A DNA stretch of 64,000 nucleotides from Escherichia coli (GTDB taxonomy: Bacteria > Pseudomonadota > Gammaproteobacteria > Enterobacterales > Enterobacteriaceae), in assembly GCF_051903065.1 (NCBI RefSeq), contig NZ_CP178440.1; one strand, written 5' to 3'. Of the stretch, positions 120 through 6,979 are shown piece after piece. The notes under the pieces are model-generated. The model was given only the letters and a program-made list of their open reading frames with translations. It searched no databases and was not told where the DNA came from. The position numbers and the translations under genes are program-made. The stretch's first letter is position 1. Each line of letters opens with the position of its first letter.

Positions 120-1049
<930 letters not shown>

Positions 1050-1364: not shown

Positions 1365-2184
1365 GGCACTGTTGCAAAGTTAGCGATGAGGCAGCCTTTT
1401 GTCTTATTCAAAGGCCTTACATTTCAAAAACTCTGCTTACCAGGCGCATTTCGCCCAGGGGATCACCATAATAAAATGCTGAGGCCTGGCCTTTGCGTAG
1501 TGCACGCATCACCTCAATACCTTTGATGGTGGCGTAAGCCGTCTTCATGGATTTAAATCCCAGCGTGGCGTTGATTATCCGTTTCAGTTTGCCATGATCG
1601 CATTCAATCACGTTGTTCCGGTACTTAATCTGTCGGTGTTCAACGTCAGACGGGCACCGGCCTTCGCGTTTGAGCAGAGCAAGCGCGCGACCATAGGCGG
1701 GCGCTTTATCCGTGTTGATGAATCGCGGGATCTGCCACTTCTTCACGTTGTTGAGGATTTTACCCAGAAACCGGTATGCAGCTTTGCTGTTACGACGGGA
1801 GGAGAGATAAAAATCGACAGTGCGGCCCCGGCTGTCGACGGCCCGGTACAGATACGCCCAGCGGCCATTGACCTTCACGTAGGTTTCATCCATGTGCCAC
1901 GGGCAAAGATCGGAAGGGTTACGCCAGTACCAGCGCAGCCGTTTTTCCATTTCAGGCGCATAACGCTGAACCCAGCGGTAAATCGTGGAGTGATCGACAT
2001 TCACTCCGCGTTCAGCCAGCATCTCCTGCAGCTCACGGTAACTGATGCCGTATTTGCAGTACCAGCGTACGGCCCACAGAATGATGTCACGCTGAAAATG
2101 CCGGCCTTTGAATGGGTTCATGTGCAGCTCCATCAGCAAAAGGGGATGATAAGTTTATCACCACCGACTATTTGCAACAGTGCC
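1365..2184 (-). mobile_element. IS26 copy 1 (820 bp), 14-bp terminal inverted repeats ggcactgttgcaaa / tttgcaacagtgcc
   Basis: Exact terminal repeats at both ends; internal ORF is Tnp26; flanking 8-mers cttgtacg and tctcaaaa differ, so no target site duplication. Confidence 0.95.
1417..2121 (-). CDS. tnpA: IS26 transposase (DDE, IS6 family)
   Basis: ORF translation [31 protein letters not shown]... identical in all three IS26 copies; ORF-track start lies 6 codons upstream of the usual Met. Confidence 0.95.
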
Positions 2185-2252
2185 TCTCAAAATCGGTGGA
2201 GCTGCATGACAAAGTCATCGGGCATTATCTGAACATAAAACACTATCAATAA

Positions 2253-2765
2253 GTTGGAGTCATTACCAAACAGGGATTATTTATTCTCTCAGGCGAGAAT
2301 AAAATAGACGAAGAATGTTTCATTAATATAGTCCAAACGGCTGTCGCCATAAATAACATCGGTAGAGAATCTAATGGTTATATTTTAGTTGGTGTTTCCG
2401 ATACCAAAGCTACGGCAGACAGAGTTAAGACTTTATATGGTGTTACCCCTATTGAGTGCAATGGCTATTATATCAATGGAATTGATCATGAAGCTGTAAT
2501 TCAATCAAAAAACATAGATAATTACTTTCTGTTCATAAAACAAAAAATAGAATCATTTAATTTTAATGAGGCTTTGAAACAACAAATACTAAAAGATATT
2601 TCATTATGTTCATATGAAGGACTGCATGTTTTAAAAATCGAAATAAAAAGTGTCGGAGAAGTCTGTCATTTTGAAAATAGGTATTATATAAGACAAGGAA
2701 CAGCTACGCATTTAATCACTGACGGTGAAGCAATTAGTAGTTTACACAGATTATATTACTCATAA
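2253..2765 (+). CDS. Hypothetical protein with an AlbA_2/Schlafen-like motif pattern (FINIVQTAVAINNIGRESNGYILVGVSD); no in-frame ATG at the 5' end, possibly non-canonical start or 5'-truncated
   Basis: Open frame from stop at 2250-2252 to stop at 2763-2765, translated by hand; AT-rich codon usage unlike the backbone. Confidence 0.3.
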   Translation, partial: VGVITKQGLFILSGENKIDEECFINIVQTAVAINNIGRESNGYILVGVSDTKATADRVKTLYGVTPIECNGYYINGIDHEAVIQSKNIDNYFLFIKQKIESFNFNEALKQQILKDISLCSYEGLHVLKIEIKSVGEVCHFENRYYIRQGTATHLITDGEAISSLHRLYYS

Positions 2766-4062
2766 TTACTTAAGCACTATGAAGGTATCATACACCTTCA
2801 TAGTGTACTTTTTTACTGCGCTTTGGGGCTAAATTGTTTTTGTGAATAGCCAGAATATCGTGGCTACGGCGGCAATGGAAATATATGATCTCTGCTGCCA
2901 GAGACTGGAGATGTAATTGGGGGCAGTTTGGATATCGAAAATTATTGTACTATAAGGGGTCCGCTTGAGGGGGCCGCTTGGAAAACGGAAATTTTCCCAC
3001 GCTAAGAGAATTGAGTTGAACGAGTGGTTACATCTAGGCCAGCTAACTCACTGAACGTAAAGGCTGTACGAAATGTTCCGACCGTCCGATAACCATTTGG
3101 CTTACTTCCGTACATTTCCTTGCGTAGATGTACAGAATTGTACGATTTCGGACACCAAAACTGCTGTTGTCCCGGTGCATGAAGCTACTTTCCGGGTTGG
3201 TGGTACTGACTTTGGTGTTCTTAACGACGACGTTTTCAACTCTGAAAATCGCCTCTCTGCACGGGGATTTTTACCCCCCCATAGAGCCGTCATATAAATT
3301 CAAATTATTAACTTTGATGGTAGAATTATCTTAGGTTTGATAAAATTTTGAGCCGTCGCCGTTTACTTCACAGGATTCAATATAATGGCTAAATATACAG
3401 TTTGTGATTACCAATAAACTATTAGAAATAATGGGAATGGTTGTGCCAATCTCTATCTGGAGGTCTTATTGCAGGGAACATCCACCCCATCGTTACACCA
3501 ATACAGAATTGCCCCCGATACAAGACATCCAGACATTAACCTAATAAAAGCGCACCTTGACGAGGGCTTTCAGCAGGCAAAGTCTGAGGGATTAAAAGTA
3601 GAGATTTCAGATTATAAAGAACGTCTTTACCTGTACATTAGAACACCTGGTAATAACCTAATGCAATATTCTGGTTGCAGAGAAAAATAATACAGTCGCG
3701 CTGGATACTCTGACATTGACGCAGTTATATGATTTTCTGGCGTTGGTCAGTAAACCAGCTGCAGCCAGAACGGTGTAGTCCCTGACACAGGCGCCGGTCA
3801 TTCTGTTAACTCATCCACGTATGGGATGAACAGTTGTTTCAGTTTGAAACCAGGGATGCCAGACGGATTTTTGCTGGCGAGTACGAAATCCGTTACGAAC
3901 TTAATGGCCAGACTATTTATGTATTGCGCCTGTGACACACACGAGAAAACAGGTAGATTGTGTGTGAGGGCAACTTTAACATAGCCTGCAGGTGTTAATT
4001 CAGGAGCATTGTTATCAGACCAAATATTTTTCATTCCATTAAATAGTCTTGTAGGGGATAAA

Positions 4063-4344
4063 ATGAATTACGATGAAATAACGAAAATCACTGCAGAACG
4101 TATTAGCGACTACATGACTGAAGCGGTTAATACAGACTCTAAATCTGTTGCGGAAATGTTTCATAACGCTGCATGGGGAGTGCTATCATTGTGGTTTGAA
4201 CTCGTCACAAAAATAGATCTGGATATACATAAAAAGAACAGGTATGCAAGTTATGATTTTAGAAGAAAAATCGAAATGCAGCATGAAGAGTTTCAGAAAA
4301 TGACAGAGCGTGAGCAAGTGCCTTTATTGAAATTGCCTGAATAA
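4063..4344 (+). CDS. Hypothetical protein (93 aa), convergent with parR
   Basis: ORF with ATG at 4063; no family recognised. Confidence 0.4.
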
Positions 4345-4466
4345 CAGAGACAGTGCAAACGATTATTTCATAATAACGATTATGTAATGACTGGTAAGAA
4401 AATAACTTGATTGAGTTCCCTTTATCCAGCCTGATAGTGGATAAAGGGAACTCAATAATAATTGAA

Positions 4467-4820
4467 TTAATTTATTAGCTTCATCGCATTTTTTTTGGTC
4501 TCTTCATCACTTTTTTGCTCTTGTTGTGAAGAGGATTGAGTAACTATTGAAGAATTAAAATCGGCCATCTCTTTTGGAAATAGCGATCTCAATATATTCA
4601 CGATATCTGAAAATGTGGTTTCTTTCGTCAGCAGCTCACATAAAAGGAAAGGGGTCCGGGGATCTTGTCTGTATAAGGCCAGACCTGCCGTCAGTGCGGC
4701 CCGGTTAAGGCGGCTTCGTTCCCCTTGCGGGATACTGTCCAGTGTATCACAAACAATTTTATCTGTTTGATTTACATCTGGATTTAGTTTGAAGGCAATG
4801 GTTCTGCGCTTGTCCATCAT
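4467..4820 (-). CDS. parR: Plasmid partition adaptor ParR (StbB), type II partition system
   Basis: 117-aa ORF immediately downstream of and overlapping parM; matches R1/R100 ParR from memory. Confidence 0.8.
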   Translation of the reverse strand: MMDKRRTIAFKLNPDVNQTDKIVCDTLDSIPQGERSRLNRAALTAGLALYRQDPRTPFLLCELLTKETTFSDIVNILRSLFPKEMADFNSSIVTQSSSQQEQKSDEETKKNAMKLIN

Positions 4821-5782
4821 TAATTACCTATGAGATACATACCGTTAACTAAATCATATTGAGAGTTATTGGTTTTGAAAAAACGTTCATCACGAATCTG
4901 TGTGTGTTTTTTTACTGCATCGCATATTAATTCTGCGCCACCGCCTATAACCATAACATGAGTATAACCAGAAAATTCATTGAGCGTATTTAATACACGT
5001 TGCTCAAGTTTACGAAGTGCGTCATTCATTGCTTCGGTGACTATTGATATTTTGTTCTCATCATTAATTCGTTGCTTCAGATAGTTGTTGTCTTTTCTGT
5101 GAATAATTATATCGTCAGCAAGATAGCTACTTCCTTTTGTTCTCGCAAGAGAAAGTGCATCTTTTACTGCAGATGTGACCAGAGATACACCAAGAGATGA
5201 GTCTCCGTATATTTTACTGATCCCCGATAATTTCCCCATTACCTGAGAAATATCTAATGTGGTGCCCCCGAGATCTATAATTAATAAAGAATCTAACTCA
5301 TCCAGTTCTTGTAGAACTTCATAACCTGCCGGTATAGATTCAGGCATGACTTTTACATCTTTTATTGTGAATGTATCCCCACCATTTAATGTAATTTTTT
5401 TCCGGAAGTTTGCTTTCTTACGCTCAATATTTTCCGTATTGGGTTGGTTATTTCTGTCGTAATACTCTGTCAGAGGAAGTGTGCAAACAATATCCACTTC
5501 GCTTACCGGCAGACCACTGGTCAGTAAGGCGTGGTGCACCGCAACGACATTAACGTCGCTGTATTGCCATGCGATATTGGTTGTGACTACAGCATCCGGG
5601 CTGATTGGATCAAATGAATACTGTTCGCCGTTCAGTGTGTAGTTAAAGACCTTTTTATCACCAAAAGAGACTGCCCACTCGCGTTTGAAGCTGTTCGGGC
5701 TAATGTGCTGTTTAATTGTTCCGTCGTTTTCCTGCCACTGTAGTTTGATGTTTGTTGAACCGTCATCAATGAATACCAACAT
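4820..5782 (-). CDS. parM: Actin-like segregation ATPase ParM (StbA)
   Basis: 320-aa [20 protein letters not shown]... with DLGGTTLD phosphate-binding motif; near-identical to R1 ParM as recalled. Confidence 0.9.
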
Positions 5783-5960
5783 TTATAAAACTCCTTATGG
5801 TGTTTTTTTGGTGTGTGTTTGGGTATGTTTTGGGTTTTAAGTGGGTTTATTTGTCAAGTTTACCCCATTTTAACCATCAATCAATGATTATTTGTCTTGT
5901 TTTGGTGTTTTATTGGGTTGGGTGTGGGTTGTTTTTGGGTTTTGTTTGGCGGGTAACAAA
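5783..5960. promoter_or_regulatory. parC-like centromere/promoter region upstream of parM (GT-rich short direct repeats)
   Basis: Repeated ttttgg / gggtt(t) units on both sides of the presumed promoter, position relative to parM. Confidence 0.5.
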
Positions 5961-6295
5961 AGATGTCGCCGGGCTCCTCTTTTTACTGCGCCGGCTGACG
6001 CGGCGCGGCAGGAACGCTGCCTGTGGTCAGTGTCCCGCGTCCGGCGGGCACGGGACGGGCGCTTTTACCGCTCCCGGCTGGCGTCAGTGACAGTGTACGC
6101 CAGCCAGTCGCCCTTTCTGATGAACGCCCTTCAAGCCGCTTTCGCGGCATAGCCTTGCCGTCAAACAGACGACGGCTGCGGTATTCCACGGTCGGCCTGA
6201 CCCGTTACCGGACGCGGTGAACAGCCCACAGGCAGCGGGGAACGGGCACCACAGGGGTGCCCTCCCGGTGCCCTCTGTAAGAGAAGGAGGCTTTT

Positions 6296-6979
6296 ATGTC
6301 CCGTTTTATCCTGGGTGACTGCGTGCGAGTTATGGCCACGTTTCCGGACAATGCTGTCGATTTCATCCTCACCGACCCGCCGTATCTCGTCGGTTTCCGT
6401 GACCGTTCCGGGCGCACCATTGCCGGTGACGTTAACGATGACTGGCTGCAACCTGCCAGTAATGAGATGTACCGCGTACTCAAAAAAGACGCGCTGATGG
6501 TGAGTTTCTATGGCTGGAACCGTATTGACCGCTTTATGGCAGCCTGGAAACGCGCCGGATTCAGCGTTGTAGGGCATCTCGTCTTCACCAAAAACTACAC
6601 ATCGAAGGCCGCATATGTGGGCTATCGCCACGAATGCGCCTATATCCTGGCAAAAGGCCGTCCACGTCTGCCACAAAACCCGCTGCCGGACGTGCTGGGC
6701 TGGAAATATTCAGGCAACCGCCATCACCCGACGGAAAAGCCTGTTACCAGCCTGCAACCACTGATTGAGAGCTTCACACACCCGAACGCGATTGTGCTGG
6801 ACCCGTTTGCAGGCAGCGGCTCAACCTGCGTCGCCGCCCTTCAGTCCGGACGCCGGTATATCGGTATCGAGCTGCTTGAACAGTATCACCGTGCCGGACA
6901 GCAACGACTGGCCGCCGTGCAACGGGCCATGCAGCAGGGGGCCGCGAATGATAACTGGTTTGAACCGGAGGCTGCGTAA
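6296..6979 (+). CDS. Orphan DNA methyltransferase, beta-class (DPPY motif near N-terminus, FAGSGST AdoMet motif near C-terminus), N6-adenine or N4-cytosine
   Basis: Motif order IV then I read in translation; no adjacent restriction endonuclease gene. Confidence 0.75.
   Translation: MSRFILGDCVRVMATFPDNAVDFILTDPPYLVGFRDRSGRTIAGDVNDDWLQPASNEMYRVLKKDALMVSFYGWNRIDRFMAAWKRAGFSVVGHLVFTKNYTSKAAYVGYRHECAYILAKGRPRLPQNPLPDVLGWKYSGNRHHPTEKPVTSLQPLIESFTHPNAIVLDPFAGSGSTCVAALQSGRRYIGIELLEQYHRAGQQRLAAVQRAMQQGAANDNWFEPEAA

Follow-up and report, generated by a model that had tools for sequence, protein, structure and literature searches.

Positions 2185-4062 of the 64,000-nucleotide stretch of Escherichia coli DNA analysed here (the window) are almost certainly ordinary R100-type IncFII plasmid backbone that contains three items of genetic debris (Table 1). 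The largest of them is very probably the 3' remainder of a defence-type locus made up of one gene, whose place in the ancestral backbone was between pemIK and stbAB. The R100 resistance determinant evidently inserted into, and inactivated, this gene, which codes for a DUF262-Schlafen protein. The feature is thus ordinary, a relic of a gene of a familiar kind at a junction already described; what is added here is the identity of the disrupted gene and the exact position of the break within its catalytic motif.

Table 1. Features in and around positions 2185-4062 of the window
Feature	Position	Strand	Basis or remarks
IS26, 820 bp	1365-2184	-	Terminal repeats GGCACTGTTGCAAA (1365-1378) and TTTGCAACAGTGCC (2171-2184)
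IS26 transposase ORF	1417-2139	-	
IS1, last 83 bp, right end ...GGAGTCATTACC	2185-2267	+	100% identity to R100 IS1 end
9-bp IS1 target-site duplication AAACAGGGA	2268-2276	+	Parent codons K426-Q427-G428
3' fragment (codons 426-590 and stop) of 590-codon DUF262-Schlafen (pSlfn7-type) gene	2268-2768	+	Pfam match, join and identity
Intrinsic-terminator-like hairpin, 13 pairs then T-run	2774-2806	+	6 bp past stop; consensus scan only
Two tandem 38-bp Tn3-family terminal inverted repeats, same orientation	2919-2956, 2969-3006	+	Direct repeat family, GGGG...TAAG form
101-codon ORF (WP_001152000.1, hypothetical protein)	3385-3690	+	Comparison with intact relatives
Decayed ParE/RelE toxin gene	3716-3956	+	Repaired translation against Pfam ParE_toxin, E = 1.9e-9
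78-codon ORF	3798-4034	-	Antisense to parE remnant; no domain match
stbB	4467-4820	-	ORF; partition operon bounding the segment; colinear R100 annotation, plasmid stability protein
stbA/parM	4820-5782	-	ORF; partition operon bounding the segment; colinear R100 annotation, ParM

Positions 2186-4062 were 99.8% identical to R100 (NC_002134.1, 21911-23787). The R100 counterpart has the same flanks: on one side the end of IS1b, where the resistance determinant stops on the right, and on the other the partition genes stbB/parM. Coverage of 80% or more of the segment is seen in at least 885 plasmid records, and the segment is also colinear with backbones devoid of any resistance region. A preliminary description had presented it as an orphan segment that is AT-rich and unlike the backbone. 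The first point has to be given up, since this is the canonical R100-type IncFII backbone; the compositional point is accurate, with a GC content of 30.7% at 2268-2768 and 39.1% at 2268-4062, against 52.3% at 5783-64000. Since stbB and stbA are also AT-rich (39.7%), the low-GC block reaches to about position 5800, past the end of the segment. A scan of 2100-6300 against Rfam returned only a match to Erse that lies outside the region and, at 23.5 bits, falls far short of the gathering score (138).

The same DNA occupies the same place in R100 and in thousands of IncF records, beside stbAB in each, and is colinear with backbones lacking any resistance region, so that any foreign origin must predate the IncFII/R100 lineage. 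R100 is an old plasmid and is not known to carry the IS26/blaCTX-M structures. A recent foreign origin of the segment, as an AT-rich island or as mobile-element debris that arrived with the IS26/blaCTX-M region and is no part of the backbone, is thus very unlikely, even though its GC content (31-39%, where most of the window has 52%), the adjoining IS26 and the Tn3-family end repeats inside it would suit such an origin. So would a 35-bp direct repeat that brackets the gene region in intact plasmids, hinting that the gene itself was once an insert.

The left-hand junction of this backbone segment records how the gene was broken. The equivalent position in a related plasmid locus is annotated as IS26/IS15. 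A 54-nt pattern for the end of IS1 had a single match, at 2214-2267, where none is expected by chance, and the 83 bp that follow IS26 are evidently the remnant of R100's IS1b, cut by IS26. The earlier reading had overlooked the IS26 end at 2184, the IS1 end at 2185-2267 and the duplication at 2268-2276. IS1 characteristically leaves a 9-bp direct repeat when it transposes, and in R100 an identical copy of AAACAGGGA abuts the outer end of IS1a across the resistance determinant, where it closes the 428-codon piece of the DUF262 gene. The IS1-flanked resistance determinant of R100 is known as Tn2670. Two steps account for the arrangement, both of them legible in the sequence: the IS1-flanked determinant inserted into codons 426-428, duplicating AAACAGGGA, and in the lineage of the window plasmid IS26 later removed the right-hand IS1 except for 83 bp.

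The junction as such is already known, and plasmid biologists draw it as "delta-IS1 / backbone". In F33:A-:B- IncFII plasmids the resistance region lies downstream of pemIK and has IS1 fragments as its bounds (PMC6052338). The IS1-bounded region of R100/NR1 and its IncFII derivatives share with the window lineage the insertion point downstream of pemIK and the right-hand IS1 fragment, with the interior remodelled by IS26 (PMC6052338). The accounts of this IncFII hot spot consulted here describe it by position alone (PMC6052338), and among the papers listed in a search of the literature none links DUF262 to IncFII or to pemK.

When the R100 flanks were joined with one copy of AAACAGGGA, an uninterrupted, in-frame gene of 590 codons resulted. 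In R100 itself the CDS annotated as "DUF262 domain-containing protein", which consists of the first 428 codons, runs into the outer end of IS1a. The preliminary description had proposed a search for an intact parent locus in other genomes, and such a locus exists: the identical intact 590-aa protein, WP_001262767.1 (RefSeq name "GmrSD restriction endonuclease domain-containing protein"), is encoded in at least 146 plasmid records (tblastn), and the assembly collection yielded the same intact protein in 4,033 blocks. The order of the intact locus is invariable, namely repA, a CPBP gene, pemI, pemK, the 590-codon gene, about 1.7 kb of further sequence, stbB and stbA.

Disruption of this gene is the common state in E. 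coli. Among 5,426 complete E. coli genomes a match was present in 823, but at least 80% of the gene in only 133; about 84% of the locus-bearing genomes have the gene broken and about one sixth keep it whole. The 5' pieces stop exactly at nt 1284 and the 3' pieces begin at nt 1276, giving a 9-nt overlap, and these breakpoints point to one ancestral IS1 event. Further, independent breaks comprise an IS5-family element near codon 95 and a second 5' truncation, and a paralogue in a P2 prophage is also broken by IS1. No 5' part of the gene was detected in the window by blastn; the window stops where repA1 begins, which leaves pemIK and any 5' piece outside it. In the closest sequenced relative, NZ_CP082958.1 (99.2% identity over the first 14 kb), a plasmid distinct from that of the window, there is no 5' piece between pemK and the resistance region.

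The fragment in the window is 100% identical to the intact gene. It had come to attention through the frame at 2253-2765, described as long, start-less and reminiscent of AlbA_2/Schlafen domains, with the peptide FINIVQTAVAINNIGRESNGYILVGVSD quoted from it; the frame, the peptide and the two smaller ORFs at 3469-3690 (plus strand) and 3798-4034 (minus strand) are all present as described. The frame is open for 170 codons, a length reached in none of 5000 shuffles of the same stretch (maximum 137), and lacks ATG and GTG codons in frame; a TTG does not occur before 2574. Its resemblance to AlbA_2 is a true match to Pfam PF04326 (SLFN_AlbA_2; E = 2e-6, profile positions 18-115 of 118), although the Schlafen domain scores only just above the curated cut-off of 25.3 bits (28.7 bits for the fragment; range 27.8-28.7).

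Since the IS1 target duplication corresponds to codons K426-Q427-G428, IS1 split the gene within its catalytic motif. With K426 as its first codon, the fragment keeps most of the Schlafen/AlbA_2 domain, but the catalytic residues E419 and D424 are missing, the DUF262 and middle domains are entirely absent, the Ex4(E/D)xK motif of prokaryotic Schlafen (pSlfn) nucleases is incomplete and there is no expressible full-length gene. The fragment is, judging by its sequence, a non-functional pseudogene remnant without promoter, ribosome-binding site, start codon, DUF262 sensor or two of the three catalytic residues. In the promoter scan the number of sites did not rise above that in shuffled sequence. 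The hairpin just past the stop codon is probably the terminator of the parent gene. The R100-type IS1 insertion is only decades old. The state of decay of the fragment is uninformative either way, since it is still completely identical to the intact gene.

The preliminary description had left a choice between debris of a defence or mobile element and a non-canonically initiated gene. Debris of a defence-type gene stands; the canonical start is missing through truncation of a longer gene, which is intact elsewhere. It is hardly credible that the frame (2253 or 2262 to 2765) is a living gene for a small stand-alone AlbA_2 nucleic-acid-binding protein, for example one initiated at the ATT at 2262 or driven by read-through from IS26/IS1: although most of the AlbA_2 fold is still present and some records do call a CDS here (a 167-aa "hypothetical protein" from the ATT in one GenBank record, an "RNA-binding domain-containing protein" at times in RefSeq), the frame is exactly codons 426-590, its break coincides with the IS1 end and the target duplication, no ATG, GTG or TTG precedes 2574, two catalytic residues are gone, 57 of 57 homologues are full-length two-domain proteins, and a length far beyond chance is no more than a legacy of the gene that was split not long ago. 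The description had also held that its proposal would fall if domain searches found no significant domain and the region matched a known inert pseudogene remnant. A significant domain was found, yet the region is indeed a known kind of inert remnant.

The remainder of the segment carries other debris. The two tandem repeats at 2919-3006 are evidently transposon-end scars in the backbone, and the first of them matches another locus where a Tn3-family transposase gene ends. A 207-bp unit at 2968-3174 recurs in colicin V and IncI1 plasmids. Further along, the 101-codon ORF carries a C-to-A nonsense change at 3416 (codon 11), both in the window and in R100, and the ORF at 3469-3690 is the downstream part of this interrupted frame. 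The decayed toxin gene is 92% identical at the nucleotide level to the intact parE of plasmid p111; homology starts from toxin codon 13, the first 12 codons being missing, and the remnant contains one frameshift and two in-frame stops, its tblastn match being split over two frames. No match to an antitoxin was found upstream of it, so that an intact toxin with its antitoxin is lacking. The 101-codon ORF was considered as the ParE antitoxin and rejected: the antitoxin of the intact relative is a ribbon-helix-helix protein, with no match in the window. The minus-strand ORF antisense to the parE remnant is most likely spurious. The suggestion that the remaining ORFs are fragments was therefore sound, one being part of a nonsense-cut ORF and the other the antisense of a toxin remnant. 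Nothing significant was found in Pfam for the ORFs at 3073-3297, 3128-3334, 3469-3690 and 3798-4034, nor in NCBIfam or PADLOC for those at 3469-3690, 3798-4034 and 4063-4344.

The domains of the parent protein indicate what was lost. A GmrSD_N/DUF262 (ParB-like) domain occupies residues 26-165 (E = 2e-19) and includes the motifs QRxxxW (32-37) and DGMQR (71-75), while the Schlafen/AlbA_2 domain, above the cut-off, occupies residues 420-573. The catalytic motif reads E419-QPNY-D424-F-K426 (Ex4DxK). In an alignment of 57 full-length homologues (36-87% identity), all of them two-domain proteins, every sequence has E419 and K426, and at least 90% have D424; Q32, R33, W37, D71, G72, Q74 and R75 of the DUF262 motifs are also invariant. 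The family is a large one: the best 120 matches listed are mostly full-length proteins of about 590 aa with 36-87% identity, and come from Enterobacterales, Vibrio, Aeromonas, Chromobacterium, Burkholderia and Planctomycetes.

Homologues of the parent occupy accessory slots of mobile elements. In P2-like prophages of Cronobacter and E. coli they lie between tail/virion-morphogenesis genes and the baseplate gene V, and a Vibrio homologue sits in an integrase island. A chromosomal P2-type paralogue is present in 28 complete E. coli genomes, and the P2-prophage paralogue is 68% identical to the plasmid protein.

By analogy with known systems, the intact parent is most likely a phage defence protein in which a DUF262 sensor is joined to a Schlafen tRNase. 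The DUF262 and middle domains would sense phage DNA or an infection cue through NTP binding or hydrolysis, as in GmrSD, BrxU and SspE, and the sensor would then switch on the fused Schlafen RNase, which would cut tRNA and block phage protein synthesis. A further-reading interpretation, which we regard as unlikely, is that the multiresistance hot spot of R100-type IncFII plasmids is the catalytic centre of a Schlafen anti-phage gene whose loss was not neutral, either because inactivation was perhaps favoured or because the dead fragment is expressed and interferes. If so, one advantage of inactivation might be relief from a tRNase that, once triggered by infection, is a burden or impedes the spread of the plasmid, and an expressed, catalytically dead C-terminal fragment might disturb intact Schlafen defences such as that of the P2-prophage paralogue.

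For the window itself a dead gene fragment is of little consequence. For annotation, many IncF records contain a start-less "hypothetical" or "RNA-binding" CDS that ought to be labelled a pseudogene, namely a fragment of WP_001262767.1. Plasmids with the intact and the split gene also offer a natural comparison for the effect of a plasmid-borne Schlafen protein on phage sensitivity or plasmid fitness.

Several known systems share parts of the parent's architecture. PD-T4-2 is a two-gene system, and the suffix "_A" in the PADLOC model name implies a partner. The PADLOC model PD-T4-2_A matches only the DUF262 part of the parent (residues 14-179), and the ORFs flanking and downstream of the parent gave no PADLOC match, so that this system is not represented. 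The best PADLOC match was NsnA (9e-22), covering residues 10-341, i.e. DUF262 and the helical domain that follows. NsnA of Menshen is the ParB-DUF262 plus ParBDB sensor of NsnABC (PMC12065111). The parent shares with it the DUF262 and helical domains, but has its effector fused rather than separate. Since neither an NsnB ATPase nor an NsnC effector was found beside the parent in ten intact loci, where the neighbours are pemK and the 101-codon ORF, it is not a Menshen system.

The similarity to the GmrSD family is likewise confined to the N-terminal side. GmrSD, BrxU and SspE, like the parent, begin with a ParB-like DUF262 domain, which bears the motifs QRxxxW and DGxQR, and have a helical middle domain after it. 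Two of these type IV restriction/sensing enzymes (DUF262 plus DUF1524), BrxU and SspE, are structural matches of the parent, and its sequence also matches BrxU (7p9k; E = 2e-4). However, the C-terminal DUF1524 His-Me nuclease of this family is replaced in the parent by Schlafen/AlbA_2: no match to DUF1524 (His-Me/HNH) was found in the parent at E values up to 1, so that it lacks the GmrSD nuclease. Because of this replacement, RNA rather than modified DNA is the likely target.

The closest counterpart is found among the prokaryotic Schlafen proteins. Catalysis by the Ex4(E/D)xK motif has been shown for human SLFN11 and for RorSlfn5, a bacterial Schlafen with demonstrated tRNA cleavage (PMC13056530). 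Fusions of DUF262 with Schlafen constitute the class pSlfn7, which makes up 1.8% of prokaryotic Schlafens (Perez Taboada et al., Nat Microbiol 2026, PMC13056530), and a member of this class from E. coli UC4224, EcoSlfn7, cuts T7 plating 538-fold (PMC13056530). The parent has a profile-detectable Schlafen/AlbA_2 domain with the Ex4(E/D)xK motif and, both as reconstructed and in its naturally intact form, unites DUF262 and Schlafen in one polypeptide. Its likeness to EcoSlfn7 is one of architecture: both have an N-terminal DUF262 domain and a Schlafen nuclease domain with Ex4(E/D)xK, and, as for pSlfn7 in general, a single gene is carried on mobile elements. Only the final 165 codons of such a gene are present in the window, and DUF262, E419 and D424 are not among them, whereas the intact plasmid gene has both pSlfn7 domains in one chain together with the motif.

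In intact plasmids, the two copies of a direct repeat about 35 bp long bracket the DUF262-Schlafen gene, of which the window keeps only a 3' fragment. The first is situated between pemK and the gene's start, the second about 370 bp 3' of its stop, and the two sequences compared (window 3140-3174 and 4749-4783 of L007, a plasmid with the gene intact) are 88% identical. Together these repeats enclose a gene of 33% GC, a hint that it once arrived as an inserted cassette.

Downstream of the fragment are two tandem repeats of Tn3-family type, which have the same orientation, are 71% alike and have no transposase gene attached. The first of them has a match at the end of a tnpA gene of the Tn3 family on an IncHI1B plasmid. 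The 207-bp unit was found again, at 91-97% identity, in unrelated contexts: pJIE186-2 has it in the colicin V/B/M region, and in IncI1 plasmids it is flanked by a parA-like gene on one side and yagA on the other. This unit may be a miniature element derived from Tn3, or the relic of a transposon end.

Features of the window and chromosomal paralogues
Feature	Record	Position	Strand	Remarks
blaCTX-M gene	window	120-995	minus	
Tn3-family terminal inverted repeats	window	2919-2956; 2969-3006		38 bp, two in tandem (GGGG...TAAG)
207-bp unit	window	2968-3174		starts at second Tn3-type repeat
Conserved hypothetical ORF (WP_001152000.1)	window	3385-3690	plus	101 codons
ParE/RelE toxin gene, dead	window	3716-3956	plus	5'-truncated; one frameshift, two stops
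Conserved hypothetical ORF (WP_001333089.1)	window	4063-4344	plus	93 codons; directly upstream of stbB
Chromosomal DUF262-Schlafen paralogue	L014	7001-8776		
Chromosomal DUF262-Schlafen paralogue	L008	8001-9776		

Intact relatives of the ParE/RelE remnant occur on other E. coli IncF plasmids (83-89% amino-acid identity), where they are accompanied by a ribbon-helix-helix antitoxin. The 101-codon ORF, in which a domain search found no domain, is intact where the plasmid keeps the Schlafen gene whole; the window and R100 share a nonsense codon in it, at 3415-3417. Domain matches to the 93-codon ORF were all sub-threshold. Beyond stbA, a weak Rfam match to the Erse sRNA (6061-6255, minus strand) scores 23.5 bits, where the gathering score is 138. 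It falls in GC-rich DNA (66%) that separates stbA from a gene for a DNA methylase, and probably arose by chance.

On the other side of the segment, IS26 cuts at 1365 into AT-rich DNA upstream of blaCTX-M (996-1364), which we take to be probably an ISEcp1 remnant. The closest relatives carry CTX-M-55 as the blaCTX-M allele, and the complete plasmids that come closest, at 99.2% identity, are two of IncFII type from Salmonella enterica in China.

The DUF262-Schlafen family has also been disrupted independently in two other records, L031 (CP061532.1) and L032 (NZ_CP031134.1). In the plasmid gene, an IS5-family element near codon 95 leaves a 500-aa truncated product; the cluster to which this product was assigned at 90% identity contains 1,685 sequences, checked in part. 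A 68%-identical paralogue in a P2-like prophage carries IS1, inserted at a different site. Among the 5,426 complete E. coli genomes, 28 have such chromosomal paralogues. In the P2-like prophages they lie between tail/virion-morphogenesis genes and the baseplate gene V, a position typical of accessory defence cargo.
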